DNA of 64,000 nt from a virus. Positions 2,805 to 54,319 of this stretch are shown here, in pieces. How positions within the stretch are numbered: position 1 is the stretch's first letter; each line of letters starts with the position of its first letter. The DNA is taken from positions 6,129-70,128 of the IMG/VR virus record IMGVR_UViG_3300043409_001275. One strand, given 5' to 3'. The notes beneath the pieces are model-generated. The model did no database searches. It was not told the origin of the DNA and worked only from the letters and a program-made list of their open reading frames with translations. Both the position numbers and the translations under genes were made by a program.

Positions 2805-2821
2805 TATAAAAAACAAAAACA

Positions 2822-5607: not shown

Positions 5608-5609
5608 AA

Positions 5610-10608: not shown

Positions 10609-10633
10609 ATTGTTTAATTTTAAATAAAAAATT

Positions 10634-13027: not shown

Positions 13028-13029
13028 AA

Positions 13030-27877: not shown

Positions 27878-27894
27878 ATTAATTAATTTTACTT

Positions 27895-29216: not shown

Positions 29217-29218
29217 TT

Positions 29219-32196: not shown

Positions 32197-32240
32197 TTTA
32201 ATTAATAAAATATATTTTGTTTTTTTTATTTACTTTTAAT

Positions 32241-32253
32241 TAATTTTGGTAAT
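32241..32253 (+). promoter_or_regulatory. Bacteroidota-type -7 promoter element
   Basis: TAATTTTG followed by GTAA, in an AT-rich intergenic gap. Confidence 0.5.
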
Positions 32254-32265
32254 AAATTTTATTTA

Positions 32266-35166: not shown

Positions 35167-35167
35167 A

Positions 35168-35662: not shown

Positions 35663-35691
35663 ATATAATTTCGTAACGAAAAAACACAAAA

Positions 35692-36825: not shown

Positions 36826-36855
36826 AATTTATTTTACCCTTAAAAACAAAACAAA

Positions 36856-38208
36856 ATGGCAAATATTGGAAATATAACCAAAGCCTATGTCAGCGCTATT
36901 GACCCAGTGCTTGACACGAGAGAGATTAACAAATTAGTTACCGACATCCAAAACGAAGATGCGTTAACCGACATTTTATGGTTGGGAGATAGAAAAAAAC
37001 CAATCGCAACAGGTCAACCTTTGTACTACACATTTGTAAACGAAAGTTTATTTAAATTGTTAGATACAACAGGTGGTACAGTTAATGGTACAGGTACAAC
37101 TTCATTAAACTTCACTTGTACAGCAGCGACTTCAGGTCAAGCTCGTAAAGATGATTTAGTGTTAGTTCCTACTGGTGCTATTTCCGCTATCGTTACAAAC
37201 GTAGTATCTACTTCAGGTATTGATACAGTTTACATTAAGACAGTTTCTGGAGCTAACGCTACTTTGACTGCTGGTGATAAATTATCTTTATTCTCTGTAG
37301 CAGTTGGTGAGAACTCTGTTTCTCAAAGCAACTTACGTTTCGGTTTGACTCGTTACACTAACAAGTATCAAATCTTTAGAGAAATCTCTAAAATCACAGA
37401 TGTACAAAACGCTGCTACAATCGAGGTGGAATTTAACGGACAAAACAAGTTTATCGTTAAAGACCATTTAGAGAAAGCAATCCGTTTAAAAGGACAAATC
37501 AATGCTGCTTATATCGCAGGTGATATGTCAGTTACAACTTTCAGCGATAGCAACCCTATCTTGACTGATGCTAACACTTCTGGCGGAGATGGTGGTGGAC
37601 CGGTACAAACTACTCGTGGATTGAACAAATACATTGAAATGTATGGTTCTACATTAGTAAATGGTACTTTAGGTACTGTACAACAAACAAATATTGATAA
37701 CGCTTTAGATGTGTTGATTTCTCAGCGCTCTCCTAAAGATTATTTAGTATTTGGTTCTTCTGCTGCAAAGCGTGCGCATGATACATATTGGAAGGCTTTA
37801 GGTTCTTCTGGTGTTCAATCAGTACGTATTGTAGTTGATGGTAAAGAATTAGATTTGACTGTAGACAAAGTTAGCTACGGTGGATTTGATTTACATTACA
37901 TGGCAATGCCAATTCAAGACCAACCGGTATTATTCAGCCAAACTACTATCAATAAGAGTGTTTACTACATTCCTTATAATAATAGAGTTAAAGTTGAAGG
38001 CGGTGGTTATGATTCAGCAATGCGTGTAAGATACGTACCTGCTCAAACCAAGTATGGTAATGACATGATTGGTGAAATCCATACAGGAGCATTATCTCCT
38101 GTTAATCCTAACGGAGATGCGATGAACTGGACATGTTCTTGGACAACTGCGCAGGGTCTCGAATGTTTAGGTGTTCAGCACTTTTTACGTCAACAAGTTT
38201 TGTCATAA
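36856..38208 (+). CDS. Major capsid protein (HK97 fold)
   Basis: 450 aa; VGENS...YTNKYQIFRE...TTRGLNKYI pattern; strong codon bias; followed by a terminator. Confidence 0.8.
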   Translation: MANIGNITKAYVSAIDPVLDTREINKLVTDIQNEDALTDILWLGDRKKPIATGQPLYYTFVNESLFKLLDTTGGTVNGTGTTSLNFTCTAATSGQARKDDLVLVPTGAISAIVTNVVSTSGIDTVYIKTVSGANATLTAGDKLSLFSVAVGENSVSQSNLRFGLTRYTNKYQIFREISKITDVQNAATIEVEFNGQNKFIVKDHLEKAIRLKGQINAAYIAGDMSVTTFSDSNPILTDANTSGGDGGGPVQTTRGLNKYIEMYGSTLVNGTLGTVQQTNIDNALDVLISQRSPKDYLVFGSSAAKRAHDTYWKALGSSGVQSVRIVVDGKELDLTVDKVSYGGFDLHYMAMPIQDQPVLFSQTTINKSVYYIPYNNRVKVEGGGYDSAMRVRYVPAQTKYGNDMIGEIHTGALSPVNPNGDAMNWTCSWTTAQGLECLGVQHFLRQQVLS

Positions 38209-38221
38209 AAATGTGATATTG

Positions 38222-38250
38222 GAAGGGTGGTTTTTAGCCACCCTTTCTTA
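38222..38250 (+). terminator. Intrinsic terminator after the major capsid gene
   Basis: Hairpin AAGGGTGG-TTTTTAG-CCACCCTT followed by T-rich sequence. Confidence 0.75.
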
Positions 38251-38256
38251 TCTTTG
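38249..38256 (+). promoter_or_regulatory. Bacteroidota -7 promoter element
   Basis: TATCTTTG upstream of the ATG at 38293. Confidence 0.55.
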
Positions 38257-38292
38257 TATAAACTAGAATTTCATAACAAAAAAACACACAAT

Positions 38293-39195
38293 ATGCAAGT
38301 AGTTGGAAAATTCAACGCGATTTCAGAGGAATTAAAAAAACAAATTCCTGCGTTAGAGGTTGGTCAAACAATCACATTTGAAATGCTTACCGGTCAAAAG
38401 AACAATGACCCTGATGAAAAAGAAAGACAAAAAAGTCCTATGCTTTATCCTAAAGCAAATATTCCTTTAAGGGATAGAATCAAAGACCCTTATATAAAAG
38501 AAGGAAGTTCTTGGGTAGATATCGTAGTTGCTGATTCATGGGATAGAGATGGTAATCCTAGAGAAAGATTTTTTATGCCGGGGATTAGTGATGGTTCTGG
38601 AGATTTTAAATTTGGAGGTAAGTTTTCATTAACCGGTGGAAACCAAAGAGATGAAGAGTTGTATGAGTTTTTGATGATTTCAAATTGGAATCAAGATAGT
38701 ATTATAGGAGAAGGAGGAAGAGATAAAAGCAAAGCTCCTATGTGCAAGGTTATTAATCAAAAAGTTACAAGTCAAAAAGTTATGACTGGCTTTAACACAT
38801 TAAAAGAGGCAATTAATATTGTTACCAAATTAAAACCTTTTGAAGCTCGTCAAATTGGTGCATCATTAAATTGGAATGAGTTTACTGATGATGAAGTTAT
38901 TTTAGCTCAAGTAGCTGATTTAGCTCGCACTAAACCTGAAGAGTTTTTAAGAGTTTATAATGACCCTAATAAACCAATTAAAGCATCTGTTAGAAAAGCA
39001 TTAGATTCCGATGTTCTTAAGTTTGATATTGCAACAGGAAAAGTTACTCTTGGTTCTCAAGAAATAACAACTATATCAAAAGAAGATAGAGGAAATGTTA
39101 CAGAAGCTTTAACTCAATTTATTAATTCTGCAAAGAATGGTAAACAAGTTTTAGATAATATTAATAAACAATTAACTGAACCAGAAACGGTATAA
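38293..39195 (+). CDS. Conserved crAss-like morphogenesis protein downstream of the capsid gene (start corrected)
   Basis: Position; C-terminal ARTKPEEFL...ALDSDVL helical pattern. Confidence 0.55.
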   Translation: MQVVGKFNAISEELKKQIPALEVGQTITFEMLTGQKNNDPDEKERQKSPMLYPKANIPLRDRIKDPYIKEGSSWVDIVVADSWDRDGNPRERFFMPGISDGSGDFKFGGKFSLTGGNQRDEELYEFLMISNWNQDSIIGEGGRDKSKAPMCKVINQKVTSQKVMTGFNTLKEAINIVTKLKPFEARQIGASLNWNEFTDDEVILAQVADLARTKPEEFLRVYNDPNKPIKASVRKALDSDVLKFDIATGKVTLGSQEITTISKEDRGNVTEALTQFINSAKNGKQVLDNINKQLTEPETV

Positions 39196-39215
39196 TTAAT
39201 TTAATTATTTACAAG

Positions 39216-39250
39216 AAAGCTCTTACTTAAAAAAAGTAGGAGCTTTTTAT
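39216..39250 (+). terminator. Intrinsic terminator
   Basis: AAAGCTCTTACTT / AAGTAGGAGCTTT hairpin followed by a T-run. Confidence 0.75.
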
Positions 39251-39272
39251 TTATAATACTATTATTTTTTGG

Positions 39273-39286
39273 TATTTTTGGTAAAA
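39273..39286 (+). promoter_or_regulatory. -7 promoter element for the fibre operon
   Basis: TATTTTTG followed by GTAAAA, upstream of the ATG at 39296. Confidence 0.5.
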
Positions 39287-39295
39287 GTTTATATT

Positions 39296-39832
39296 ATGCC
39301 TTTAGTACCAAATTTTACAGTAGCGCAATATGTATCAAATCCAAATTTAATTGTATTTACAGATACGAGTACTGGAACAGACTCTTCGGTAACTGTGCGA
39401 TATGTATATATGCAAAAATCAGATGGAACATATCTTGTTCAGGAAGGAACAACAACAAATTATGAGATATGGTCTTTAGCAAGTGGTAATACAATTAGTT
39501 TTGATGTCCTTGATAAAGATTATGCATTAAATATTACAGTAGAATGGAGAAGCACAACTTCTACATTAGGTGATAGTGTAGTGTTGTATAACAAAAGTGC
39601 ATCGTATTGTTTTTCAACATATGCAAAAATTTATAACACAAAGTTATCAAAAGCGCAAGTTTCAAGTCCTAGTTTATTAGATGGCGCTAACTGGTTGGCT
39701 ACTAAAAAAGCATTAAATACTTATATAGATGCCGCTGATGATGCAGTATCATTTGGCGCAGGGATTACGATTGCGCAATTATCATTAAATAAAGCGAAGT
39801 TCATTATTGACAATCCTAAATTAGTATTCTAA
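39296..39832 (+). CDS. Virion structural protein (PKD/Ig-like N-terminus)
   Basis: PNFTV...IVFTDTSTG pattern; first gene of the fibre operon. Confidence 0.5.
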   Translation: MPLVPNFTVAQYVSNPNLIVFTDTSTGTDSSVTVRYVYMQKSDGTYLVQEGTTTNYEIWSLASGNTISFDVLDKDYALNITVEWRSTTSTLGDSVVLYNKSASYCFSTYAKIYNTKLSKAQVSSPSLLDGANWLATKKALNTYIDAADDAVSFGAGITIAQLSLNKAKFIIDNPKLVF

Positions 39833-40350
39833 TGTTAAATACAGTGGATGTTATAGAGATAGCAAAGGTTACAGTATCTGTTGTTATAAAAGCTATTGAA
39901 TTAAATCAAGAGAATGATATTGAATTGCCTAATAAAATTTCTATAGAGGCTCGTGCATTAGAGTGGGTTAATTCTACAAATTATACAGGAATAAATTTAG
40001 CAGGTTTTACTGAATATGTTTATGGTATGTGTGGTGGATATGCATTTGAGGCAGAAGCTTTAATGGGACTTGCAGGATATGTAGTTGACCCTTCTAGTGG
40101 TGGAGGCGCAAGAGTACCTGAACAGTACAGCGCGTTTGCAAGTACCGGAAGTGTATCTATTATATTTGCTCAAGCTATTGGGAAAACATTACTTTATGCA
40201 AGTAGAGGTGGTATAGATGTAGGGGAAATAATTTTATCAGGAGTGCCTGTATTAAATCAGGTTAGGTGGGATATTGCGACAGGAACTTTAACAGTGGCAG
40301 CAACAGTTCCTTTTGTAACAGGTGAATATGTAAAAATCATAGTATATTAA
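39832..40350 (+). CDS. Virion structural protein (putative fibre hub/adaptor)
   Basis: Coupled ORF immediately before the large fibre gene. Confidence 0.45.
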   Translation: MLNTVDVIEIAKVTVSVVIKAIELNQENDIELPNKISIEARALEWVNSTNYTGINLAGFTEYVYGMCGGYAFEAEALMGLAGYVVDPSSGGGARVPEQYSAFASTGSVSIIFAQAIGKTLLYASRGGIDVGEIILSGVPVLNQVRWDIATGTLTVAATVPFVTGEYVKIIVY

Positions 40351-40361
40351 AATTTAGCTTA

Positions 40362-43300
40362 ATGGCAATACAATCAATAATAACAGGTGATTTACAAATA
40401 AGGGACTTAAACGGAGTTCTTATTGCCAATAATGGTATAGTAACTTCTGTTGGAAATATAACTTCAGGAACAGCGGGAACTAGCGGTACTTCAGGTTCGG
40501 CAGGGACTTCGGGTACGGCAGGAACTAGTGGATTCGCAGGAACAAGCGCAAGAATTGTTTTTAATTATGTGGCGACAGCGGGGCAAACTACTTTTAATGT
40601 GCCTAGTGGTTATGAAAATGGGATGATTGATGTTTTTGTGAATGGGGTAAAATTATTTCCAAGCGATTATACAGCGACAGATGGTTTCAATGTAATACTT
40701 AATAATCCTCTTCAAGCAGGTGATAATGTAGAGATTGATAATTTTGTATCTAGCTATGTGGCATCTTCAGGTACTTCGGGTACAAGTGGAACAGCTGGTA
40801 CTTCGGGTACAACAGGTACTTCTGGTATTGGTGGTGATAAATATTACACCATATCAGTTTCAATATTTACTTTAGGAACGGGTGGTTACTTAATGGTTTC
40901 ACCCGGTTTATCATACTCTCCTGCACAATCAATTATAGTAGTACATGATAATACTCACTTTCAAGAATGTGAGGTTGTTTCTTATAATGTGGTTACAGGA
41001 GAAATAGTTTTTGGCGACCCTAGTAGGGTTGTCGGTGGTGGAACTTTTTCTAGTTGGGTAGTAAACCTAGATGGTGCTTCAGGTGGTGATGGTACTTCAG
41101 GTACTTCAGGTTCAAGTGGTTCATCTGCTACTTCAGGTTCATCAGGAACTTCGGCTACTTCAGGAACTTCTGCTACTTCAGGAACTTCAGGTTCAAGTGG
41201 TAGTAGTGGCTCAAGTGGAAGCAGTGGCACTTCTGGTTCATCAGGAACGAGTGCAACTAGTGGTAGTTCAGGAACATCAGCAACTAGTGGGTCATCAGGC
41301 ACATCAGGTGTTGATGGTACTTCTGGTATTAATGGTACTAGCGGTTCTTCAGCAACTAGTGGTAGTAGTGGTACTAGCGGAACAACAGGAACTTCAGGTA
41401 CGACAGGTACTAGTGGAACAGCAGGTACGACAGGTACTTCAGGTCTTTCAGGAGATAGATATAGAACAACATCTACTACAACTTTTACTTTAGGTAATGC
41501 AGGAACTTTAACAGTAGGAACACTATTGGGATATAGCCCTGCTCAATCAATTATAGTGGTTTATGACCCTTCAAACTTCCAAGAGTGTGAGGTAGTGTCT
41601 TATGATGCAAATACAGGCGTTTTAATATTCCTTGCTCCTACTAGAACAGTGGGTAGTGGAACTTATAGCTTATGGACAGTGAACTTGGATGGCGCGAGTG
41701 GTGGTGATGGTTCAAGTGGTACTTCAGGCACTTCTGCAACAGCAGGAACGAGCGGTACAACAGGCACTAGTGGTACGACAGGCACAAGCGGTACAACAGG
41801 AACGAGTGGTACAACGGGTACTTCAGGAACGACAGGAACGAGTGGTACAACGGGTACAAGCGGTATCAATGGTGTATCAACTAATTTATTCTTATACGAA
41901 GCTGACGCAAATACTTTTACGGGTGCGCCTTCAAGTGGGCATATTCTTTGGAATAATGCAACACAGATAAGTGCTACCCAAATAAACATAAATCACTTAA
42001 CAGATACCCCGATAACAGATATTGATATATTTATAGCTTTATGGCAAACAGGGCAAAAATTAACAATACAAGACAGAAGCAATTCAGCTAACTATCAAGT
42101 ATGGACAATTAGCGCTACCCCTATTTATGTTTCTCCAACTTATTGGACAATACCTGTTACATTGGTATCATCAGCAGGAACGGGAACAACAGGGTTTGCT
42201 AATAACCATCCAATATTTGTAGCTACATCCGCCTTTAGCGGAACTTCAGGAACTACAGGGACTAGTGGCACAACAGGGACTAGTGGCAGCAGTGGTTCAA
42301 GCGGAACTACGGGGACAAGCGGTACAACAGGTACTTCAGGTTCAAGTGGCTCTTCGGGTTCTAGTGGCTCTAGCGGTAGTAGTGGTTCAAGCGGTTCAAG
42401 TGGTACAAGTGGTCTTTCAGGTACTTCAGGTGCGCAAGGGACTAGTGGAACAACTCCCGTAGGTGTAATTACAGGTTCAGGAACAAGTGGCTACCTACCT
42501 AATTTTACAGGTGCAAGTACAATAGGTAATAGTTTAATCCAAGACAATGGAACAGGTGTTGGTATTAGTACATCGCCTACTGCTGGTTATCTTTTAGATG
42601 TATATGGTACTGCTACATTTGGTGCTAGTGCAACAGTTGGCAATAAAGTACATATTGGTAGCGGTGCAGTTCCTTCTGGTGCAGCTGGTATTGGTTTATG
42701 GGCTACAGGAAGTAATTTATTTAGTATTGTAGGTTTTGGAGATACAACATTAGATTCAAGAGGTTCATATTTATTAATAAATCCTAATGGTGGAAATGTA
42801 GGTATAAATAATTCATCCCCTAGTTATCAGCTAGATGTTAATGGTACAGGAAGGTTTAGTGGGCAATTGAGTTCTACTATGGGCAACAATACATTAATTT
42901 TTAAATCTCAAACTGCAACTACAGGGTATCAATATATAAATCTTTCTAATACTTCAGGTAGTTTATTATTAGGGATAGAAGGAACGGCAGCAGGTAGTTT
43001 ATTGACAGGAGGTTCTGCTTATGCAACAGTTTTAACATCAGGAACTGCAACAAATCTTGAATTTGGTACTAACCAAGTATTAAGATTAAAGTTAGATGGC
43101 TCTACAGGAGCAGCTACATTCTCTAGTAGTGTAACGGCATTAGGTGGAATAAATGGTTATTCAGGTTTAAACGGATATGCAGGCGTTACGCATAATTTTT
43201 TTGTAGATTGGTCTGCTGAATCACAAATAACAACTTTAACTGCAACAAATTTATTTTTTGGTACAAATGCTCAAAGGAGAATGACTATTACAAGTGGAGG

Positions 43301-44687
43301 CAATGTATTAATAGGAACTACTACTGATGCAGGCTACAAGCTAGATGTTAATGGTACAGGAAGATTTAGTGGTAATGTTGTTTTAAGTGGTAGTGATTCA
43401 AGGTTTAATGGTGGTGATTCAGTTGGTAGATTAATTATGTCAAATTCAAACACAACTACTTACATAGGATTGTATGGTGCAACTCATCCAACTTTACCTT
43501 ATGTAATGTCGTTTGTAGTAAATAGTGCATCTGCCTTGTCCATAGCATCCACAGGAGCAGCTACATTCTCAAGTAGTGTAACGGCAGATAGGGTTTTAAC
43601 TGCCAATAAAACAAATAATAGTACATTAGTTGCAGGTAGTATTGAAATACAATCTTACGCTTTAAATAATAGTTGGGTAGGTGATAATCTTTATTTTGAT
43701 GGGGCTGCATTTCTAGCTAGGAATACAGGATATACATCTCAAATATATTTTCAAACTGATGGAAGTATTCAGTTTAAAACAAGTCCTTCAACTGTTACTT
43801 CAGGTTCAGCATCAAATAGTACTCCAAGACTTACCATAGCATCCACAGGAGCAGCTACATTCTCTAGTAGTGTTCAAGGAACAATTTTAACTGCAACATC
43901 TTATTTTACATCAGATTATTATAGAGATAGTAGATTGGAAGCATTATTATTATACGCTGGTTCTAATCAAATTAGATTAGGTAGCGGTGTTGCTGCTGAC
44001 TTTTTAACATTTTATGGTGGGGGAAGCGAAAGAATGCGTATTACAAGTGCAGGTTTAGTTTCTATAAATGGTTTAGCAGCATCTACAAATTATAAATTAG
44101 GTGTAACAGGAGCAGCGTATATTGAAGGAACTAATAGCAAGGGTATATTTTTTACCGACCAAGCATCGCATTCTTCAATAGTAGGAATAAATAGTGGAAT
44201 ATCTTCTTATAATAGTATGGAATTAAGGGCTAGTGGAACTGATGGTCAATTATTTTTAATAACATCTGGTAATGTAAGTATAAAAACAAAAACTGATTTT
44301 GGGTATGCTTTAAACTTAAATGGTCAGCCTGGTGCAAATGGGTATACCGCTTGGACAAACTGGTCAGATTCAAGATTAAAAGAAAATGTAACTGACTTGG
44401 AAGTTACTAATGTATTAGATAAAATTAATAGAATAAGACCAGTAACATATAATTACAACGAACTATCAGGCTTTGATGAAACCACAAGAGCAAGAAGAAT
44501 ATCAGGATTTATAGCTCAAGAATTAATGGAGGTATTCCCTGATATGGTTGGTACAATTAAAAAAGAAGATGTTGAATATTATGATACTAATTTATCTAAT
44601 TTAACTTTGTACTTGGTAAAAGCCATCCAAGAGCAACAAAAACAAATTGAAGAACTTAAACAAATTGTAGCTACAATTAATAAATAA
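40362..44687 (+). CDS. Tail/capsid fibre with Gly-X-X (GTS/GSS/GTT) repeats and C-terminal intramolecular chaperone (peptidase S74-like)
   Basis: Long (G-T/S-S/T)n tracts; RMTITSGGNVLIGT fibre repeats; WSDSRLKENV...GFIAQEL...LVKAIQE chaperone domain. Confidence 0.85.
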   Translation: MAIQSIITGDLQIRDLNGVLIANNGIVTSVGNITSGTAGTSGTSGSAGTSGTAGTSGFAGTSARIVFNYVATAGQTTFNVPSGYENGMIDVFVNGVKLFPSDYTATDGFNVILNNPLQAGDNVEIDNFVSSYVASSGTSGTSGTAGTSGTTGTSGIGGDKYYTISVSIFTLGTGGYLMVSPGLSYSPAQSIIVVHDNTHFQECEVVSYNVVTGEIVFGDPSRVVGGGTFSSWVVNLDGASGGDGTSGTSGSSGSSATSGSSGTSATSGTSATSGTSGSSGSSGSSGSSGTSGSSGTSATSGSSGTSATSGSSGTSGVDGTSGINGTSGSSATSGSSGTSGTTGTSGTTGTSGTAGTTGTSGLSGDRYRTTSTTTFTLGNAGTLTVGTLLGYSPAQSIIVVYDPSNFQECEVVSYDANTGVLIFLAPTRTVGSGTYSLWTVNLDGASGGDGSSGTSGTSATAGTSGTTGTSGTTGTSGTTGTSGTTGTSGTTGTSGTTGTSGINGVSTNLFLYEADANTFTGAPSSGHILWNNATQISATQININHLTDTPITDIDIFIALWQTGQKLTIQDRSNSANYQVWTISATPIYVSPTYWTIPVTLVSSAGTGTTGFANNHPIFVATSAFSGTSGTTGTSGTTGTSGSSGSSGTTGTSGTTGTSGSSGSSGSSGSSGSSGSSGSSGTSGLSGTSGAQGTSGTTPVGVITGSGTSGYLPNFTGASTIGNSLIQDNGTGVGISTSPTAGYLLDVYGTATFGASATVGNKVHIGSGAVPSGAAGIGLWATGSNLFSIVGFGDTTLDSRGSYLLINPNGGNVGINNSSPSYQLDVNGTGRFSGQLSSTMGNNTLIFKSQTATTGYQYINLSNTSGSLLLGIEGTAAGSLLTGGSAYATVLTSGTATNLEFGTNQVLRLKLDGSTGAATFSSSVTALGGINGYSGLNGYAGVTHNFFVDWSAESQITTLTATNLFFGTNAQRRMTITSGGNVLIGTTTDAGYKLDVNGTGRFSGNVVLSGSDSRFNGGDSVGRLIMSNSNTTTYIGLYGATHPTLPYVMSFVVNSASALSIASTGAATFSSSVTADRVLTANKTNNSTLVAGSIEIQSYALNNSWVGDNLYFDGAAFLARNTGYTSQIYFQTDGSIQFKTSPSTVTSGSASNSTPRLTIASTGAATFSSSVQGTILTATSYFTSDYYRDSRLEALLLYAGSNQIRLGSGVAADFLTFYGGGSERMRITSAGLVSINGLAASTNYKLGVTGAAYIEGTNSKGIFFTDQASHSSIVGINSGISSYNSMELRASGTDGQLFLITSGNVSIKTKTDFGYALNLNGQPGANGYTAWTNWSDSRLKENVTDLEVTNVLDKINRIRPVTYNYNELSGFDETTRARRISGFIAQELMEVFPDMVGTIKKEDVEYYDTNLSNLTLYLVKAIQEQQKQIEELKQIVATINK

Positions 44688-44706
44688 ATAAAAAACAAAA
44701 TAAAAT

Positions 44707-45009
44707 ATGAAGACAATCTCTCCAGTGGTATTCCCACTAAATTTAGGAACTGCAACAGTGCTTAACGCTTATTGCATTAATGACAATTTAAGCACTTCAG
44801 CTACCTTTTATTATGCACTTTTAAGTGATACTATGGCACAGCTTTCTCAAGGCAACTTGAATATGACAGGTCAAGATTATGCTGATTGGCAAACCAACCA
44901 ATATGCCTATGACTGGATTGCAACTCAAATTGATGTAACCATCACAGGCGATTATGTACCTCCAGTACCTCCAGTAGTAGAAGAAGTTGCTCCAACAAAT
45001 AGTTTATAG
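44707..45009 (+). CDS. Fibre-associated small protein
   Basis: Follows the S74 fibre gene; SQGNL.MTGQDYADW motif. Confidence 0.55.
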   Translation: MKTISPVVFPLNLGTATVLNAYCINDNLSTSATFYYALLSDTMAQLSQGNLNMTGQDYADWQTNQYAYDWIATQIDVTITGDYVPPVPPVVEEVAPTNSL

Positions 45010-45037
45010 CCTTATTTGTTAATTGAATAAATTAACA

Positions 45038-45051
45038 TAATTTTGGTAAAA
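45038..45051 (+). promoter_or_regulatory. -7 promoter element
   Basis: TAATTTTG followed by GTAAAA, upstream of the ATG at 45062. Confidence 0.5.
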
Positions 45052-45061
45052 ATTTTAAATT

Positions 45062-45235
45062 ATGAACAACGAACCAAAACAATTACCGGTACCATCATTA
45101 ACAGCTGAACAAGTTCAACTATTGGTAAATCTTGCACTTGAAATGCCTACTAAATATGGTAGTGAAATTTTAAAAGTAATTGAAAAAGCAGCTTTTGATA
45201 TAGAAAAGGCTGCTCAAGCTCCTAAAGTAGAATAA
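45062..45235 (+). CDS. Small helical protein, 57 aa (MNNEPKQLPV...EMPTKYGSEILKVIE...); not in the ORF track
   Basis: Fills the gap in frame from ATG to TAA; possible fibre chaperone. Confidence 0.65.
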   Translation: MNNEPKQLPVPSLTAEQVQLLVNLALEMPTKYGSEILKVIEKAAFDIEKAAQAPKVE

Positions 45236-45245
45236 AAAGAATAAA

Positions 45246-47156
45246 ATGAGTAAAAATACAGTCATCAGTGAAATAGCTAATGTATCAGGATTAGTAAAAC
45301 AAGTCGGTACAAGTGGTTTTTCAACTGCAATCCCAAATGTAGATTATCAACTACCAATTAGTTTAACCACATTCGGGGTGACTGGACCCGCTACTTTTAG
45401 TAGCAATGTATTAAATATTCCTATTTATGGCTCTAGTGGAACTACGGGTACTTCAGGCACTAGTGGAATAGGTACTTCAGGCACTAGTGGTAATGGAACA
45501 TCAGGCTCATCTGGTTCTTCAGGCTCAAGTGGAAGCTCTGGCTCTTCGGGGTCAAGTGGTTCTTCAGGCTCATCAGGAACTAGCGGTATTAATGGTACAT
45601 CAGGAACTACGGGTACTTCAGGAACTACTGGCACATCGGGTTCTAGTGGGTCTAGCGGAAGCTCTGGTTCTTCAGGTTCTAGTGGTTCAAGTGGAAGCTC
45701 TGGCTCTTCTGGTTCTAGCGGTTCATCAGGAACAACGGGAACTAGCGGTTCATCAGGTACAACAGGAACATCAGGTACTACTGGTGTAAATGGCATTAAT
45801 GGAGATAAGTATTTAACCACTTCAGCTACATCTTTTACTCTAGGAAATTCAGGAACAGTAACTGTTGGAACAGGATTGGCTTATAGCTCCGCTCAAAGTA
45901 TATTGATTTCTTACGATGGCAGTAATTATCAAATATCAGCTGTAACATCTTACAATAGCATAACAGGTAGTTTATCTTTCGGTTCACCAAGTACAACAGT
46001 TGGTTCAGGTACATATAACTCTTGGACTGTAAACCTAGCAGGTGCAAGTGGTGGAGATGGTAGCTCTGGTAGTAGCGGTACTTCGGGAGTTGCAGGAACA
46101 AGTGGAGTCAATGGAACAAGTGGATTAAACGGAACAAGTGGGATAAATGGTACTAGCGGTACAAGAGGTACAAGTGGGGTAAGTGGTTCTTCAGGAACAT
46201 CAGGTGTAAATGGAGGCAATGGCTCATCAGGGACATCAGGAATTAATGGTATAAGCGGAACTAGTGGTATAAACGGAATTAATGGTACTTCAGGTATCAA
46301 TGGCGTAAACGGTACTTCAGGAAATAGCGGTTCAAGTGGTAGTAGCGGTTCAAGTGGCGTAAGTGGTTCATCAGGTTCATCAGGAATCAATGGTGCCAAT
46401 GGAACAAGCGGTATCAACGGAACAAGTGGAATAAACGGAACAGCAGGGATTAGCGGTACTTCTGGAGGTAATGGTACTTCTGGAATTAATGGTATTAATG
46501 GTACTTCAGGAATTAATGGCTTAAACGGAACATCAGGTATTAATGGCGGAAATGGTAGTTCTGGGACTTCGGGCGCACAAGGCGGAAATGGTAGTTCTGG
46601 GACTTCGGGCGCAAATGGTTTAAATGGCTCATCAGGAACAAGCGGAATAAATGGTATTAATGGTACAAGTGGTATCAACGGAATCAACGGCACATCGGGT
46701 ATAAATGGTGTCAATGGCACTTCGGGAAATAGTGGTAGTTCAGGAACTTCAGGAGCTAATGGAACAGGGTTTACTTCTATCTCACCAACCAATGTAGGAT
46801 ACGTCCTTTTAGCCAATGGAACATCTAATAGTGCAACAGGAAGCTCATCCGTTTATGTAACAAGTACTAGTCAGTTAAATGCTGGTTCTTTTTATGAAAC
46901 TTCTGATATAAGATTTAAAAACGTACTTGAAACAAACCCATCCATAGATTTACCATTAGATGTAATTAAATTCACTAGAACAGATGAAAATAGTGATGCA
47001 ATTAGATATGGCTATTCAGCTCAACAAGTACAATCATACCTTGCAGATGTAGTTTCAGGAAATGAAAAATTAGTCGTAAACTATTCAGATATACACACAT
47101 TAAAAATAGCAGCCCTAGAGAAAAGAATTGCAGAACTTGAAGCCAAATTGAAATAA
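45246..47156 (+). CDS. Second Gly-X-X repeat fibre (GSS, GTS, GIN) with S74-like C-terminus
   Basis: Repeat tracts; TSDIRFK...RYGYSAQQV...IAELEAKLK. Confidence 0.8.
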   Translation: MSKNTVISEIANVSGLVKQVGTSGFSTAIPNVDYQLPISLTTFGVTGPATFSSNVLNIPIYGSSGTTGTSGTSGIGTSGTSGNGTSGSSGSSGSSGSSGSSGSSGSSGSSGTSGINGTSGTTGTSGTTGTSGSSGSSGSSGSSGSSGSSGSSGSSGSSGSSGTTGTSGSSGTTGTSGTTGVNGINGDKYLTTSATSFTLGNSGTVTVGTGLAYSSAQSILISYDGSNYQISAVTSYNSITGSLSFGSPSTTVGSGTYNSWTVNLAGASGGDGSSGSSGTSGVAGTSGVNGTSGLNGTSGINGTSGTRGTSGVSGSSGTSGVNGGNGSSGTSGINGISGTSGINGINGTSGINGVNGTSGNSGSSGSSGSSGVSGSSGSSGINGANGTSGINGTSGINGTAGISGTSGGNGTSGINGINGTSGINGLNGTSGINGGNGSSGTSGAQGGNGSSGTSGANGLNGSSGTSGINGINGTSGINGINGTSGINGVNGTSGNSGSSGTSGANGTGFTSISPTNVGYVLLANGTSNSATGSSSVYVTSTSQLNAGSFYETSDIRFKNVLETNPSIDLPLDVIKFTRTDENSDAIRYGYSAQQVQSYLADVVSGNEKLVVNYSDIHTLKIAALEKRIAELEAKLK

Positions 47157-48910
47157 TGAAAGCTAATAACTACCTAGTAACTTGGACTGACTTAAGTACT
47201 ATGGGCTTAACCGCTAGAGGAACACCTCCTACCGGATTAGCTATTGCTAATAAAGCTGAATTGATTGCTGCTTATTATGTAGACCAATCGGCTTCCCCAT
47301 TTTCTACTTATGCATCAAACAGATGCCCTAGATATCAGGATATAGTTGCATTAGATATACCTTCGCTTTCCGTATGGGGTGCTAGGGATTCTTATAGTGG
47401 GTTTTCGATTAATGCAGGATTAGTATTTACTAACTATTCAGGATTAACTACTAATGATGTTTATAATGCAATAGGAGTAAGTAATGATGGAGTTTATGTA
47501 TGTATTTCAAAAGATTTTGGTTTTTCCGATAATGGGAGATTGATGATATCCAATAATAGCGGCTCAACATTTACAGCGATTAGTTTTTATTTTGGTTCGC
47601 CATCTAATACAGATATTGTGTTTGGAAAAGTGGGTGTGTCATTCACAGGTCAGTACATGATGGCAATTGTTTGTAGCACCCCTCCCGGTGGCGGAAGAAT
47701 TATTGGCTTTTACGGGTCAAGTAATTATGGAAGTAGTTGGACTCCAATAGATTCTAAAAATACTAGTTCGGTTGGCAATTGCGGTATGTCGCAAAATGGA
47801 AGATATCAAACATTTGTATGGTTTTTAAGCGGTGATTCATATAGATATTATTCAACAGATTTTGGTTCGAGTTGGACATTATCTAGCGCCTTTTCAACAA
47901 CTCTTTATACTGATATAAAAATGTCAAATACGGGATTATATCAGATAATTTCAGGATATAATGGAGGTACAGGAGGAGGAAGAATATACGCAAGCTCTAA
48001 TTCAGGGGGCAGTTTTACAGAGCGCATTTACGATGCAAGTTATTCTATGGATTTTGTGGCTATGACAGATGATGGAGTTTATCAAATAGGGATGGGCAAG
48101 AGTGGGAAATATTATATTTCAACAGATTCGGGTGCGACATTCCCAATAACAGGAATTATTTCTGGTGGTATTATAACATCAATAGCAATGACTGCTTATG
48201 ATTATGGTTCAACTCCATATATAATGGCTTACTCTTCTAATCAAGCGTATGTATATATTTCAAAATCTCCGTTTTCATCATGGAGTGCAGTGCCTATAGA
48301 TAATGTTATTTCTTGGAATAATATACAAAGTAGGGCAATAGTCTATCCATACACACCTGAATTAATTCCTTTAGAATATTCTTATACATTATACTACGAC
48401 TATAATGATACACTACCTGTTGTAATAGGATTTACAGTTGCAGATGATGCTTGTTCGGCAGTTAATTCATTTACCGTATATTCTAATTATAGCCCTATAA
48501 GTGTAGGCGCAACTCTTTATTATGATATTTATGGAACAACAGAAATAGAAGCTGTTCCAAGTAGCGCAGCATCTCAAAATTATTATGCAATAGGGAATAA
48601 CATAATACAATTTTCTGATAATTATACTATTGACTCAATAACATCATGTCCAGTATATGCAGGAGATGTTTGGTTTGGTACTTATTCAGGCGAAGCTTGT
48701 AGCGAAAGTAGTCCACAACAATATTTATATTGGGAAGGAAGCCAATTATTCTACAATGGATTAGTTTTATATACAGATATGGCATTATTATTCCCTTACA
48801 ATAATACAAGCGGATATACATATTGTAGAAGTGATGGTAGCGGTGGAGGGTTTGATGAATTTAATTTAAGCGGGGATACATTAGGTTCAGCTACAGGAGT
48901 TGCTTGTTAA
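47156..48910 (+). CDS. Putative receptor-binding protein with BNR/Asp-box beta-propeller repeats
   Basis: Repeated SxNxGxxF/W motifs (SNNSGSTF, SSNYGSSW, STDFGSSW, SSNSGGSF, STDSGATF). Confidence 0.7.
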   Translation: MKANNYLVTWTDLSTMGLTARGTPPTGLAIANKAELIAAYYVDQSASPFSTYASNRCPRYQDIVALDIPSLSVWGARDSYSGFSINAGLVFTNYSGLTTNDVYNAIGVSNDGVYVCISKDFGFSDNGRLMISNNSGSTFTAISFYFGSPSNTDIVFGKVGVSFTGQYMMAIVCSTPPGGGRIIGFYGSSNYGSSWTPIDSKNTSSVGNCGMSQNGRYQTFVWFLSGDSYRYYSTDFGSSWTLSSAFSTTLYTDIKMSNTGLYQIISGYNGGTGGGRIYASSNSGGSFTERIYDASYSMDFVAMTDDGVYQIGMGKSGKYYISTDSGATFPITGIISGGIITSIAMTAYDYGSTPYIMAYSSNQAYVYISKSPFSSWSAVPIDNVISWNNIQSRAIVYPYTPELIPLEYSYTLYYDYNDTLPVVIGFTVADDACSAVNSFTVYSNYSPISVGATLYYDIYGTTEIEAVPSSAASQNYYAIGNNIIQFSDNYTIDSITSCPVYAGDVWFGTYSGEACSESSPQQYLYWEGSQLFYNGLVLYTDMALLFPYNNTSGYTYCRSDGSGGGFDEFNLSGDTLGSATGVAC

Positions 48911-51711
48911 ATAGGTAGCTTATCTATAACCATTTGACCGGTAATTGATTTAGTACACTCAAATTGTCTATCAGTATCTTTATAGTCTTCACACCAATTC
49001 CAATCAGCAGGATTTAGTCGGTATCTATTAAAGCATCCACTACATTTCCCTTCGGGTGCAGATATCCTAATGCAATCTTCTACTTCAGCAAAAGGCTCTG
49101 AAAATCCACTTATAATAGCAGTAGGAACACCTAACGACCAAGATAACCAAGATAGACCACTTCCTATGCCTATAAATAGCTCCGATTTAAGCATTTCTTC
49201 CATAACTGACTCAATGCTACCATTGGGATGTAGAACTACGCCATTTGGGGCTATATTGCCCATATAATCTATTCCTTCTTTAGATAATAGTTTAACCACA
49301 TACCCTTTTCCTAGTAGATAATCCACAACTTCTTGCCATCCCGTAGGGTTATTCCAATACTTTGCTTGAGCAGTTGAATGAATGGCTATAACCACTTGCT
49401 TCACTTTTTCTACCTTTTTTACCTTTAATTTGGCTCTAATTTCCTTGTATTCCAAGCCTAATATGTTGGTGGCAGACTTCTGCATTGGTATTGTGTGCGG
49501 TACTTCAGGCTCTCTATCTTCATTATAAAACCATCCAACCCTATATAAACCATAGATGTTTTGAACTACTGTCCCCGGCTTTACAAATTCTAGTTCTGGA
49601 TAGTCAAAAATATCATTCCAAAATGTACTGCAAATCACCGTACAATTATGTTTCTTTTTAAATTCTAGGGCATACGGAACCCAAGCCAAAGTATCTCCCA
49701 ATGATTTACTTTCAAGCGTTATCAAGACCCTTTTACCTTCGTAGTTTAATGTGTTTTCATGGATTAATTTACCTTCATCCCATATCTTAAGTTTCCAATT
49801 GGTAAACCATTGTCTGTTTAATTTAACCCAATTATTGACATCAATGTGGTTATTATAGACGCATTTGCCATTGTCATCATAGTATTCAACATAAAATCTT
49901 TTATCTATAACTACCTTATCTCTTTGTTCATTATTGGTATAATCTATTCCTTCAACATCTACCTTGTTGTTTTTCTTTAGGTCTGACATTAAAAGTTCCT
50001 TGATATTGTAATCACTTTGTTTTAGGAAATTATAGAATTTAACTTCCAATATATTAAAGGATGTTCCGCTAGTATAATAGTCTTTTTTATCTTTAAATTT
50101 AGTCACAAAAGAATGTATAGCGTCTATTCTAGCTGAAAAGAAAGCAGAGCAATAAGAATTTTCCTCGTAGCTAGTGCTACCATACTTATAAACTACAAAA
50201 TCTTCCGTATCTAGTGCTTTAAGATTATCATTAATGGTGGCTTTTGAAAGCTCGTAATCATAGTTTATAATGTTTACTTTTTTATACCCTAGTTTTTTCG
50301 CATACTCAACGCCATTACGCATTAAAGTATAAACACAATACCCATGCTCTTTTTCAAATAGCTCATATATTTTTTCCCCTTTTTCATTTGTATGGAAATG
50401 GTAAAAAGCTACACCATACTTATCAAATTCATCCTTATAAAGCAATGGGTTTTCTTTTGTATAAATAACATAATCACATAATGATTGAGCATCTTCTTCT
50501 ACAGGATAGTTTACAGATAGGATAATATTAGTGTTCAATCTGTTTAAACAATTCTTTAATAGCTGTTTTCTAAAGTCATTATTAGGATGTGCAAGTACTA
50601 TGGACACTGCATCTTTATCCCTTTTATCAAATGGGTTGACGCCTTTAATCTCTAAAAAAGGTTGGTCAACAAAATGTTGAATTATAATAGGCTTTTGCTC
50701 TTTTAAGGGCAATTCTAATAGCTTTTTATAGGCTTCTTCATGTCTTAATCCAAAGGTCAATGAGGTATTATCAGTAGGTACTTTGTAATTACATTCTAAA
50801 TTATTTAAATCAGTATCAATAGGATTAATATAATCATCATACATTCCCGCATATTGAGGTAGATTACGAGCAACAATAGGAAGTCCATTAGCAATAGCTT
50901 CACGCAATACCAATGGATTAAGCTCCCAAGTAGAATTGAACATAAAGATATCAGCCGCCATCATGAATAAAGATATATCGCTTCTTTCTCCCCATACCTT
51001 TACATTTTTAGGCAAATCATTCATTAATGGTCGCCAATAATCCTCAAAATTACCCGCTTGATTACCAATAAAATGGAACATCATATCAGGATACTTACGA
51101 GCAATCTCAATGCCTTCTTTTTGATTCTTGCCCGGAGTCCATAAGCCTACATTAATAACATGTTTCTTATTCCCTTCAAACCCTAATTCAGCTCTTGATA
51201 CCCATCTGTTAGTAGTAAATTGTATATCAATTGGATAAGGTATAGTTACAAATTTAGCATCTAATCCTGCAAAAATATTCTCATGCCAAGGGGTGCAGAA
51301 AGCGTACATATCAGGATGAAAGCGTTTCTCTTCATGTGGTTTAAAGTTGGAATTATGGCAGGTTTCAACGATTCTCCACTTTCTATCATTACGATACAAA
51401 TCAGTGAAAAGCCTATCATTATTCGTTGACTCTGGCATTTCATCTAGGTGGACAATATCTATCTCTTCAGTCCTCACTATTTCCATCACCCTCATCTTAT
51501 TCTCACCAAGGCTAAAGAAATTATCCCCCACTAACTTCATTATTTGATTTCTTTGTACGGGGAAAATCTTGCCATAATCATCATATTCAGCAACAAATAT
51601 CTCAAACGAATCAGTATAATCTAGTAATGTTTGAATGCGTTTTAACACAAATTGAGGCATCCCCCCCGTTGAAATGTGGCTCATCAAGTAGAGCAGTTTA
51701 ATCTTTTTCAT
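48907..51711 (-). CDS. Multidomain glycosyltransferase: GT4, inserted GT-A-like domain, and Aah/TibC-type protein O-heptosyltransferase domain
   Basis: GT4 motifs STGGMPQF, VGLWTPGKNQ, ELNPLVLREA; Aah-like SLGDTLAW, STAQAKYWNNPTGW, FIGIGSGLSWLSW, CSGC...WNWC...RQFECTKSIT. Confidence 0.85.
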   Translation of the reverse strand: MKKIKLLYLMSHISTGGMPQFVLKRIQTLLDYTDSFEIFVAEYDDYGKIFPVQRNQIMKLVGDNFFSLGENKMRVMEIVRTEEIDIVHLDEMPESTNNDRLFTDLYRNDRKWRIVETCHNSNFKPHEEKRFHPDMYAFCTPWHENIFAGLDAKFVTIPYPIDIQFTTNRWVSRAELGFEGNKKHVINVGLWTPGKNQKEGIEIARKYPDMMFHFIGNQAGNFEDYWRPLMNDLPKNVKVWGERSDISLFMMAADIFMFNSTWELNPLVLREAIANGLPIVARNLPQYAGMYDDYINPIDTDLNNLECNYKVPTDNTSLTFGLRHEEAYKKLLELPLKEQKPIIIQHFVDQPFLEIKGVNPFDKRDKDAVSIVLAHPNNDFRKQLLKNCLNRLNTNIILSVNYPVEEDAQSLCDYVIYTKENPLLYKDEFDKYGVAFYHFHTNEKGEKIYELFEKEHGYCVYTLMRNGVEYAKKLGYKKVNIINYDYELSKATINDNLKALDTEDFVVYKYGSTSYEENSYCSAFFSARIDAIHSFVTKFKDKKDYYTSGTSFNILEVKFYNFLKQSDYNIKELLMSDLKKNNKVDVEGIDYTNNEQRDKVVIDKRFYVEYYDDNGKCVYNNHIDVNNWVKLNRQWFTNWKLKIWDEGKLIHENTLNYEGKRVLITLESKSLGDTLAWVPYALEFKKKHNCTVICSTFWNDIFDYPELEFVKPGTVVQNIYGLYRVGWFYNEDREPEVPHTIPMQKSATNILGLEYKEIRAKLKVKKVEKVKQVVIAIHSTAQAKYWNNPTGWQEVVDYLLGKGYVVKLLSKEGIDYMGNIAPNGVVLHPNGSIESVMEEMLKSELFIGIGSGLSWLSWSLGVPTAIISGFSEPFAEVEDCIRISAPEGKCSGCFNRYRLNPADWNWCEDYKDTDRQFECTKSITGQMVIDKLPI

Positions 51712-51713
51712 TA

Positions 51714-51959
51714 TTATAGGTTTTCTATTTCTTGTTTTACTTCAGCCCAATAGTCTTTCATTCCATATTTTGCACCACTATATTTTTCAATATTTCTTAT
51801 TGATGCATCATATATTGAATTAAAACTTTCAATTAATTCATTTACTGCTATCAATGCACATCTTTTAGCATAAACTATGTATATATCATAATCTAATGCA
51901 AAATCTAATTCATTTCTATATTTAATAAATAATTCCTGTGCTTTTTCTTTTGGTGTCAT
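51714..51959 (-). CDS. Hypothetical phage protein (MTPKEKA...YWAEVKQEI type)
   Basis: Recurrent small-protein pattern in Bacteroidota phages. Confidence 0.65.
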   Translation of the reverse strand: MTPKEKAQELFIKYRNELDFALDYDIYIVYAKRCALIAVNELIESFNSIYDASIRNIEKYSGAKYGMKDYWAEVKQEIENL

Positions 51960-51981
51960 AGGTTATTTGTTTTGTTTAAGG

Positions 51982-52025
51982 CAAAGATATTAATTTAATT
52001 TAATTAAATAAATTATTTATCTTTG
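51982..52025. promoter_or_regulatory. Divergent pair of identical Bacteroidota -7 elements
   Basis: CAAAGATA at 51982-51989 (TATCTTTG on the - strand) and TATCTTTG at 52018-52025 on the + strand. Confidence 0.65.
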
Positions 52026-52029
52026 TTTC

Positions 52030-52254
52030 ATGAATAAAGTAAAAGAAATATTGCTATCCTATATGACTGCAATGAACCCAACAGAAGAGCAGAAGGAAGT
52101 AGCTGAAAAAAGACTTGAGATATGTGCTACTTGTGAGTTTTGGAAGCAATCACTTGTTAGGGATTTTTGTAGTAAATGTGGGTGTACGACTTCAAAAAAG
52201 GTGTTTAGCCCTGTTGGTAGTGACGCTTGTCCGGAAAAAAAGTGGACAATATAG
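52030..52254 (+). CDS. Small Cys-rich, probably Zn-binding protein
   Basis: RLEICATC...CSKCGC...CPEKKW. Confidence 0.7.
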   Translation: MNKVKEILLSYMTAMNPTEEQKEVAEKRLEICATCEFWKQSLVRDFCSKCGCTTSKKVFSPVGSDACPEKKWTI

Positions 52255-52276
52255 GTAAATATAATTAAATAATATT

Positions 52277-52290
52277 TATATTTGGTTAAA
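52277..52290 (+). promoter_or_regulatory. -7 promoter element before the lysis cassette
   Basis: TATATTTG followed by GTTAAA. Confidence 0.5.
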
Positions 52291-52297
52291 AATTGAC

Positions 52298-52483
52298 ATG
52301 ACTCAACATAATTTAGCGGACGCATCGGCATCTATAAGCATACTATCGGCAGTCGTTACTATCAGTTCCATTCAGCCATTTGTAAGCTTAACTGCTGGAT
52401 TAGTTGCTATTGGGTCAGGTTTATTTGCAATGAGGTATTATTATTGGAAAACCAAACACATCAAAAAAGATGGCAACAGCTAA
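52298..52483 (+). CDS. Putative holin
   Basis: 61 aa, hydrophobic segments and a basic C-terminus. Confidence 0.55.
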   Translation: MTQHNLADASASISILSAVVTISSIQPFVSLTAGLVAIGSGLFAMRYYYWKTKHIKKDGNS

Positions 52484-53854: not shown

Positions 53855-54319
53855 ATGAAAATTTCAGAACATTTAGATTTATCAGAAGTAATCCGTAGCG
53901 AAACTGCAAAGCGTCATGGCATTTCAAATATGCCAACAGAAGAACACATAGCTAACTTTAAATTGTTAGCAGAAAATGTATTTGAAAAAGTAAGGAATCA
54001 TTTCCGTTGTCCTATTCATATTAGTTCTGGATACAGGAGCAAAGAGCTTAATGCTTGTACGCCGGGGGCTTCTAAAACATCAGACCATTGTCTTGGTCGT
54101 GCGCTTGACCTAGACCAACAAGGGCATAGTCATGGCATAACCAACAAAGAAGTGTTTGATTATATTAAAGATAATTTAAATTTCAAGCAATTAATCTGGG
54201 AAGGTGGTACAGAACAAGAGCCGGATTGGGTTCATGTAAGTTACGATGAAAGTAATCTCAAAAAAGAAGTTTTAAGGGCTGTAAAAGTTAATGGTAAAAT
54301 GACATATTCAAAATATTAA
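53855..54319 (+). CDS. Endolysin, peptidase M15A family
   Basis: ISSGYRS, SDHCLGRALD (H-x6-D) and WVHVS motifs. Confidence 0.9.
   Translation: MKISEHLDLSEVIRSETAKRHGISNMPTEEHIANFKLLAENVFEKVRNHFRCPIHISSGYRSKELNACTPGASKTSDHCLGRALDLDQQGHSHGITNKEVFDYIKDNLNFKQLIWEGGTEQEPDWVHVSYDESNLKKEVLRAVKVNGKMTYSKY

Follow-up and report, generated by a model that had tools for sequence, protein, structure and literature searches.

A phage-encoded TibC/Aah-like glycosyltransferase converges upon collagen-like Ser/Thr-rich fibres that it would probably O-glycosylate

Protein O-glycosyltransferases of the BAHT family, as described for TibC, move a sugar straight onto protein serine residues in the cytoplasm (PMC4358343), and both this enzyme family and its chemistry are already known. 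Phage-encoded glycosyltransferases are usually read as tools acting upon DNA or the host surface, and the one phage example for which our sources describe direct glycosylation of virion proteins is that of the mycobacteriophages, whose glycosyltransferases O-glycosylate their own capsid and tail-tube C-termini (Freeman et al. 2023, cited in PMC12619734). In collagen biology, Thr-rich, Pro-poor collagen-like proteins are described as over-represented in bacteria, archaea, and viruses, and the same account states that the Thr-glycosylating enzyme, as well as its timing before or after folding, is unknown (PMC11923368). Our literature searches returned no paper in which enzymes of the TibC/Aah type were connected with collagen-like repeats or with the fibres of phages. 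Here, we analyse a 64-kb stretch (hereafter the window; positions 6,129 to 70,128) of the linear, 70,128-bp IMG/VR virus record IMGVR_UViG_3300043409_001275, in which the gene for a 934-amino acid (aa) enzyme with a TibC/Aah-like domain converges upon an operon encoding two fibres that carry long Gly-Ser/Thr repeats. Judging from gene content, we estimate a probability of roughly 65% that this phage O-glycosylates its own fibres on these repeats in the cytoplasm.

The two proposed acceptors are encoded on the plus strand. Fibre 1 (1441 aa, 40362-44687) matches the collagen repeat family PF01391 (E 1.3e-26) and consists of Gly-Ser/Thr collagen-like segments alternating with globular repeats of ~80 aa, followed by a repeat-rich, non-collagen distal part and a C-terminal S74 intramolecular-chaperone domain (Peptidase_S74, PF13884, E 4.3e-17 at residues 1335-1396). 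Fibre 2 (636 aa, 45246-47156) matches PF01391 even more strongly (E 7.3e-46); its strict G-x-x runs, defined as at least five consecutive G-x-x triplets, cover 363 aa with 64% Ser/Thr at the X/Y positions, and its C-terminus is weakly similar to that of fibre 1 (E 0.007). Both proteins match tail-fibre PHROGs. A preliminary description of the locus had spoken of hundreds of Ser/Thr residues in GTS/GSS/GTT triplets, and the counts agree with it: the Ser+Thr totals are 441 for fibre 1 and 231 for fibre 2, and the strict runs contain 98 and 121 triplets, respectively (219 altogether), led by GTS (38+33=71), GSS (20+33=53), and GTT (15+6=21). The strict runs of both fibres together hold 312 Ser/Thr, 0 Pro, and 11 charged residues. 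The longest Gly-x-x run spans 243 aa, whereas no run exceeded 27 aa when fibre 2 was shuffled 1000 times, and such uninterrupted Gly-X-Y periodicity predicts a triple helix. Among the other window open reading frames (ORFs) of at least 100 aa, none has a Ser/Thr-dense stretch (30 aa with at least 50% Ser/Thr). The operon further includes a 100-aa ORF between the fibres (44707-45009, plus strand), which has no match in Pfam, and ends with a gene for a 584-aa protein with Asp-box/BNR-like repeats (47156-48910, plus strand). The latter matched no family in Pfam and PHROG searches and gave a weak NCBIfam match to F510_1955 glycosylhydrolase (E 2.7e-5, far below the cut-off); it is possibly a distal receptor-binding or glycan-binding protein. 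The ORF coordinates bear out the reported convergence of the minus-strand enzyme gene (48907-51711) upon this operon, as its stop end overlaps that of the 584-aa ORF by 4 nucleotides (48907-48910). The fibres end 0-1.8 kb from the enzyme gene.

The enzyme had been presented as an Aah/TibC-type glycosyltransferase, an assignment which holds for residues 586-934 (48910-49956, minus strand), but not for the entire length, since residues 1-335 form a GT4 domain and residues 342-585 probably adopt a GT-A fold. Residues 586-931 score 239.6 bits against TIGR04414 (242.8 bits when searched on DNA), which is above the curated equivalog cut-off of 200, and residues 586-934 match the TibC structure (PDB 4RAP) with E 1.5e-50. 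The AlphaFold2 model of the whole enzyme has a mean pLDDT of 87.8 (43 homologues in the alignment); compared by Foldseek with the chains of 4RAP, it gives TMt 0.77-0.78 and a root-mean-square deviation of 2.8-2.9 over ~348 columns at 31% identity, with the beta-barrel, GT-B core, thumb, and finger of the TibC protomer. All of the motifs highlighted previously (LGDTLAW, STAQAKYWNNP, GSGLSWL, and CSGC...WC...EC) occur in the translation. Likewise, the catalytic base of TibC (Asp110) corresponds to D673, its beta-phosphate ligands (Thr226/Lys230) to T780/K784, and its heptose-O4 contact (Trp305) to W855, and the equivalents of these four residues are kept in nearly all of the 182 unique family members that we compared. 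The four iron-finger cysteines of TibC (Cys339/342/358/370) are found as C890/C893/C907/C919, which predicts a 1Fe-0S site. The beta-hairpin thumb, which in TibC builds the dodecameric ring together with back-to-back dimers, is 3 residues shorter and has Tyr816/Met817 at its tip as compared to Phe265/Val266 in TibC, and the 585 N-terminal residues of the phage enzyme might interfere with a TibC-type ring.

The remainder of the enzyme consists of two further glycosyltransferase-type domains that the preliminary description had missed. The N-terminal domain (residues 1-335; 50707-51711, minus strand) has a GT-B fold of the GT4 type and matches both PF00534 (Glycos_transf_1; 48.5 bits, residues 169-291, E 9.5e-13) and PF13692 (36.3 bits) above their cut-offs, while Foldseek relates it to PimB', BshA, MshA, and WaaG (E 1e-10 to 1e-8). 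The middle domain (residues 342-585; 49957-50688, minus strand) gave no Pfam family above the cut-off and stayed unresolved when Foldseek was run with the model of the whole enzyme. When modelled separately with AlphaFold2 on an alignment of 24 relatives (pLDDT 85.3), its top Foldseek matches all had the GT-A fold of nucleotide-diphospho-sugar transferases, the best being 3cgx (E 6.4e-7) with TM-scores of just 0.4-0.5; most were glycosyltransferases and several were nucleotidyltransferases. D485 and E556 are invariant and D485 occupies the place expected of an acidic metal/nucleotide motif behind the central strand, with no clear DxD motif. This unclassified domain therefore likely has a GT-A fold, and its glycosyltransferase activity is putative. 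A jackhmmer search located it in ORFs of ~35 other loci, and at many TibC-like loci it is either fused or encoded by a separate neighbour gene. In a protein-atlas look-up it fell into unnamed viral clusters only, the nearest named family being WavE at 0.89, which we treat as a lead. The arrangement of three domains, the middle one being a GT-A-fold module, is new for this window.

It had been proposed that the two gene types should co-occur across phage genomes, and this was strongly borne out. Among close relatives, a Ser/Thr G-x-x ORF is convergent on the enzyme gene in 11/13 viral loci; of the other two, one lacks a repeat ORF within 10 kb, while the sequence of the other breaks off at the enzyme gene. 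A wider search with the TibC-domain profile matched at least 592 viral stretches, and 30 of the 80 loci kept from these contain a Ser/Thr-rich G-x-x ORF. In the reverse test, viral contigs were selected by a degenerate DNA pattern, (GGN ACN WSN)x5, and whole records were searched for TIGR04414, with viral records picked by an arbitrary 14-mer serving as the control (3.69 Mb in the repeat set and 3.08 Mb in the control). The TibC-like domain was present in 21/73 repeat records (20 of them above the cut-off) versus 0/77 control records (Fisher p = 5e-8), and at >=60% completeness it occurred in 8/13 of the repeat-bearing records. The 21 co-occurring records are distributed over 9 domain-tree clusters, and 13 of these records, among them genomes of 173 and 299 kb, have their repeat ORF no more than 6.7 kb away from the enzyme ORF. 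Individual phages illustrate the range of arrangements. In Microcystis phage Mel-JY01, the gene for a TibC-containing 1226-aa protein is preceded, 1.7 kb upstream, by a frame with 606 aa of G-x-x (79% Ser/Thr), and in the 735-kb phage LR756501 a Ser/Thr G-x-x ORF is the divergent neighbour of the TibC-like gene, while LR756504 has no repeat ORF within 20 kb of its TibC-like gene. The repeat frame of Mel-JY01 (PP395634.1) occupies positions 2-3052 (plus strand) at the very start of the record, where the annotation instead shows an overlapping 'hypothetical protein' on the minus strand (739-2298); a collagen-like fibre gene, which may wrap around the record ends, has probably been overlooked in the deposited version. 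Its 1226-aa protein is annotated as 'methyltransferase FkbM', although it contains GT4 and GT9/TibC-like domains and no FkbM domain at E<=1e-4. A further such repeat is in the viral locus L025, where a 2690-aa ORF (12941-21013, minus strand) contains 2289 aa of G-x-x with 96% Ser/Thr at the X/Y positions, 1.9 kb from a 736-aa TibC-containing enzyme.

The pairing also extends beyond phages. A genome scan found at least 589 relatives, and a Ser/Thr G-x-x ORF accompanies the enzyme at 20/32 of the closest genome loci versus 2/48 of the more distant, classical-type loci (Fisher p = 1e-8). The loci with repeat neighbours derive from Methylococcales, Arenicellales and other Gammaproteobacteria, Burkholderiaceae, Bradyrhizobium, Pseudobdellovibrionaceae, and a Nitrosotalea metagenome-assembled genome (MAG), among others. 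In bacteria, the repeat neighbours mostly lie 77-900 bp from the enzyme gene, and the ten that we translated are small proteins that have a (GTS)n, (GSS)n, or (GTT)n tract but little else in common, 7/10 having a signal-peptide- or lipobox-like N-terminus. All four classical loci that were checked (Franconibacter, Kosakonia, Enterobacter, and Burkholderia) have instead an ORF of 986-2550 aa directly after the enzyme gene, which we call an autotransporter because its length and coordinates match those of an ORF with an autotransporter beta-domain match in that genome. In a FastTree phylogeny of the 182 unique domains, a repeat neighbour is found in 1/46 members of the two classical clusters versus 72/136 of the rest, and 14/21 of the non-classical clusters include at least one. 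The neighbour label requires 30 changes on the tree versus 56-60 in five shuffles; it is clustered, yet it has been gained or lost many times, and truncated loci inflate this count. The catalytic and the phosphate-binding residues are kept in 135 and 135, respectively, of the 136 non-classical sequences. Because bacteria and one archaeal MAG hold the pairing too, it is not a phage invention, and the idea that the phage repurposed this enzyme class appears doubtful. The archaeal example (L382, a Nitrosotalea sp. MAG contig) has a TibC-containing 998-aa ORF, which includes the GT-A-fold middle module, and at a distance of 2.3 kb an ORF with GTS/GSS repeats (ORFs at 5026-5790 and 8135-11128); despite its assignment to an archaeon, this contig could be viral or mis-binned.

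The classical and non-classical sequences also differ in a residue tied to donor choice. In TibC, Arg286 contacts adenine N1 and is described as the basis of ADP specificity (PMC4358343). The equivalent residue of the phage enzyme is Val836, and Arg occupies this position in 45/46 classical versus 17/136 non-classical sequences. Such a clade-wide loss of the adenine-contacting Arg from the non-classical branch is new for this window, and it predicts a changed sugar donor. Neither gmhA nor rfaE-I nor rfaE-II was found in the record, for which the completeness estimate is 61% and whose host could supply the sugar, or in the close relative G151; LR756504 does have gmhA and LR756501 an rfaE-I-like kinase, both distant from the TibC-like genes. 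Since Arg286 is replaced by Val and heptose-pathway genes are lacking, the sugar donor is probably other than ADP-heptose, as had been suspected at the outset, with the evidence consisting of one residue from a 3.9-Å structure and of gene absence in an incomplete record. In addition, no autotransporter beta-domain (PF03797) was found in the 70-kb record. With neither the Arg286 equivalent nor an autotransporter neighbour, the NCBI name 'autotransporter strand-loop-strand O-heptosyltransferase' would over-annotate this enzyme.

A second set of sugar-related genes, likewise absent from the preliminary description and new for this window, is located between the terminase and portal genes (26559-32196). 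It comprises eight plus-strand genes, identified through Pfam/NCBIfam, which encode five glycosyltransferases, two methyltransferases, and one epimerase/reductase: a GT25-like protein (26559-27185), a GT2 protein (27182-27877), a GT11 fucosyltransferase-like protein (27895-28632), a Methyltransf_24 protein (28617-29216), an NAD-dependent epimerase/reductase (29219-30226) that is nearest to GDP-fucose synthase, though far below that cut-off, an FkbM methyltransferase (30223-30858), a GT47-like protein (30855-31673), and a second GT25-like protein (31651-32196). A hydropathy scan of these eight proteins plus the 934-aa enzyme found no transmembrane-like segment in any of the nine (the maximum Kyte-Doolittle 19-aa mean of the 934-aa enzyme, predicted to be soluble, is 1.21), none of the phage's glycan enzymes has a signal peptide, and no sign of a lipid-carrier route was seen among the nine. 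The lack of transmembrane-like segments fits a cytoplasmic modification of virion proteins. Elsewhere, TibC-like domains are fused to FkbM, Methyltransf_24/TylF, GT4, GT34, and a PLOD-type collagen glycosyltransferase domain, with FkbM and Methyltransf_24 occurring in proteins P0161, P0047, P0188, and P0250. Such fusions tie the families of the cassette, indirectly, to the same pathway as the TibC-like domain. Two giant metagenomic fusions (P0188 and P0161) combine several of these modules, one of 1827 aa joining GT4, PLOD-type collagen glycosyltransferase, DUF6625, FkbM, and TibC-like domains, and one of 1545 aa joining GT4, TibC-like, FkbM, and Methyltransf_24 domains.

Taken together, we propose that this phage-encoded O-glycosylation machinery would act late in infection upon the repeats of both fibres in the host cytoplasm, which is where phage fibres fold and assemble. 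The TibC-like domain would initiate by transferring the first sugar from a nucleotide sugar onto Ser/Thr hydroxyls in an inverting GT-B reaction, with Asp673 as the putative base and Thr780/Lys784 as the putative ligands of the beta-phosphate. Extension of the glycan may then fall to the GT-A-fold and GT4 domains of the same chain, and the five glycosyltransferases and two methyltransferases of the cassette would probably extend and methylate it further. As for the effect upon the fibre, proline and charge pairs are the two usual stabilisers of bacterial collagens. Because the phage repeats lack proline and nearly all charge pairs, and glycosylated Thr is known as a third stabiliser, stabilisation of the triple helix is the most specific guess at a function. 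In line with this, the literature describes (Gly-Pro-Thr)10 as a random coil that turns into a triple helix only once its Thr residues carry galactose, and glycosylated Thr as a stabiliser of Pro-poor triple helices (PMC11923368). The sugars could thus plausibly stabilise or stiffen the helix in the place of the hydroxyproline of animal collagen, and their alternative effects might be hydration, protease resistance, or shielding. The mucin-like filaments put forward in the preliminary description, with roles in stability, adhesion, or shielding, are likewise hypothetical.

Several observations weigh against this proposal. The case as a whole is built upon gene content. A repeat ORF is lacking from the examined DNA of 50/80 profile-derived viral loci, and 52/73 repeat-bearing records have no TibC-like domain, including 5/13 of those at >=60% completeness. 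A group of stand-alone viral enzymes of ~386 aa has no repeat neighbour within 10 kb, and repeats occur elsewhere in 4/36 of its records (4/5 of those at least 37% complete), most of these records being 4-30% complete. From the many enzyme loci without repeats and the many repeat records without the enzyme, it is clear that the pairing is not obligatory. The random control was also unmatched for habitat and clade, and the enrichment could partly reflect the shared ancestry of aquatic phages. Furthermore, the link between the cassette at 26.5-32.2 kb and the fibres is indirect, and the acceptor of TibC is the folded beta-helix of its autotransporter rather than a collagen-like chain, such that acceptor recognition would have to differ here.

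Of the alternative explanations, the one that retains most is that the target of the enzyme lies in the host, among its proteins or in its envelope, such as (GTS)n surface proteins, in order to block superinfection or alter the cell surface, with the fibre genes being its neighbours only through a shared variable host-interaction region. The secreted or lipoprotein-like (GTS)n neighbours of the bacterial relatives imply that a host could own acceptors, the repeat gene and the enzyme are over ~10 kb apart in 8/21 of the co-occurring viral records, and host-surface or DNA modification is the role to which phage glycosyltransferases are usually assigned (PMC7029224, PMC10202952). However, candidate acceptor sites are encoded by the hundred in the phage's own DNA beside the enzyme gene, this adjacency recurs in genomes of 100-300 kb, no enzyme carries a signal peptide or transmembrane segment, and no host acceptor can be named. 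We regard a host target as unlikely. Slightly further down the scale, and in our estimation quite improbable, is a linkage devoid of any enzyme-substrate relation, in which the product would be a free or lipid-linked glycan or something else, or the TibC-like domain would be inactive or structural, and the co-occurrence would stem from the common descent of aquatic phages. Both the unmatched control set and the clustering of the neighbour label on the tree are compatible with such descent, whereas the near-universal conservation of the catalytic and phosphate-binding residues argues against an inactive domain. The pairing is moreover dispersed over two-thirds of the non-classical tree clusters, and because it exists at <1 kb in Mb-size bacterial chromosomes, shared phage ancestry cannot explain it. 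Least probable, and very unlikely in our view, is the use of other virion acceptors, such as the capsid, the 3718-aa leucine-rich repeat protein described below, or the globular and distal parts of the fibres: TibC does act on beta-helical repeats, fibre 1 does have its long repeat-rich distal part, and the documented mycobacteriophage modifications are on capsid and tail-tube C-termini (cited in PMC12619734), but the Gly-Ser/Thr repeat is the only feature common to the neighbour proteins across phages and bacteria, and the window has no further Ser/Thr-dense stretch. DNA glycosylation was considered separately as a function and rejected, as the family consists of protein O-glycosyltransferases and co-varies with repeat proteins.

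The gene order of the window begins with a primase/helicase and a 1184-aa virion protein, followed by a 3718-aa ORF with BspA-type leucine-rich repeats (13030-24186, plus strand; PF13306, E 2.9e-38, five stretches) located just upstream of the terminase large subunit gene (24511-26559). After the glycan cassette come an HNH/NUMOD4 endonuclease (32266-32799, plus strand), the portal (32800-35166), and a weak match to an SU10-type major capsid protein (36856-38208), ahead of the fibre operon. The enzyme gene is the first of a minus-strand island (48907-52331) that also contains two small ORFs (81 and 90 aa) and shows reversed GC skew within the otherwise plus-strand structural region; the island looks like an inserted cassette. 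Beyond it are an endolysin and early-type genes, and the second homing-endonuclease-like gene of the window (54319-54990, plus strand) follows the endolysin. Also encoded are a 282-aa protein, each half of which is weakly GroES-like (4116-4964, plus strand), and a 305-aa anti-restriction-type protein (62735-63652, minus strand; phrog_7245, E 7.6e-80). A scan for promoters and terminators across 39-53 kb gave counts at the level of shuffled sequence, and a megablast search of positions 30000-40000 of the window against a phage collection returned zero matches. A tRNA scan found none and hence gave no clue to the host. Weak hints are the GC content of ~32% and a near-identical contig in a 'Bacteroides' MAG bin: a 63.6-kb contig of 33% GC (L359), assigned to an 'uncultured Bacteroides sp.' MAG, shares its 960-aa enzyme and its 509-aa fibre ORF with the viral contig L003, and is best viewed as a phage contig inside a bacterial bin that offers at most a weak hint to the host.

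Returning to fibre glycosylation, a wider proposal can be made more tentatively than that for the phage itself. It is possible that the non-classical TibC/Aah branch constitutes a widespread and so far undescribed O-glycosylation system for Gly-Ser/Thr collagen-like repeats, in which multi-sugar, methylated glycans built from a non-ADP donor would take the place of hydroxyproline in stabilising triple helices that contain no proline. Many aquatic phages would share this system with diverse bacteria and with one archaeal MAG or more. If true, many environmental phages, and with at least 592 viral stretches encoding the enzyme type a large share of uncultured aquatic phages, would carry glycoprotein fibres, which bears on how phage particles adsorb, how stable they are, and how they are recognized. 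An enzyme family would likewise be named for the open question in collagen biology mentioned at the outset.

Among the known systems, Mimivirus and related giant viruses use a virus-encoded, multi-enzyme glycosylation of their own surface fibrils, but these are eukaryotic viruses with different enzyme families. As in the mycobacteriophages, phage-encoded glycosyltransferases are proposed here to act upon the phage's own structural proteins, whereas the mycobacteriophage targets are not collagen-like fibres and, to our knowledge, the enzymes are not BAHT-like. At the level of the acceptor, the closest likeness is to the BclA-type glycoproteins of the Bacillus exosporium and the cuticle collagen of Riftia, described as having collagen-like Gly-X-Thr/Ser repeats without hydroxyproline (PMC11923368). 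In both of these, Thr carries O-glycans; the phage repeats differ in lacking Pro as well, and their glycans are putative. We know of no TibC-like enzyme that initiates glycosylation in the BclA- or Riftia-type systems. At the level of the enzyme, the closest relatives are TibC-TibA and Aah-AIDA-I of E. coli (TIGR04414; 4RAP/4RB4; PMC4358343), with which the phage enzyme shares its fold and domain order (beta-barrel, GT-B core, thumb, and iron finger), the catalytic Asp, Thr/Lys, and Trp, and the four Fe-cysteines. The setting is shared as well, as in each case a soluble enzyme is encoded beside a Ser-rich protein of highly repetitive sequence, which would be its target for hyper-glycosylation prior to export or assembly. 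Unlike in TibC/Aah, however, the neighbour is a collagen-like Gly-Ser/Thr fibre rather than an autotransporter, Val replaces Arg286, heptose-pathway genes are absent, the TibC-like domain is the third of three, and the enzyme is encoded by a phage.

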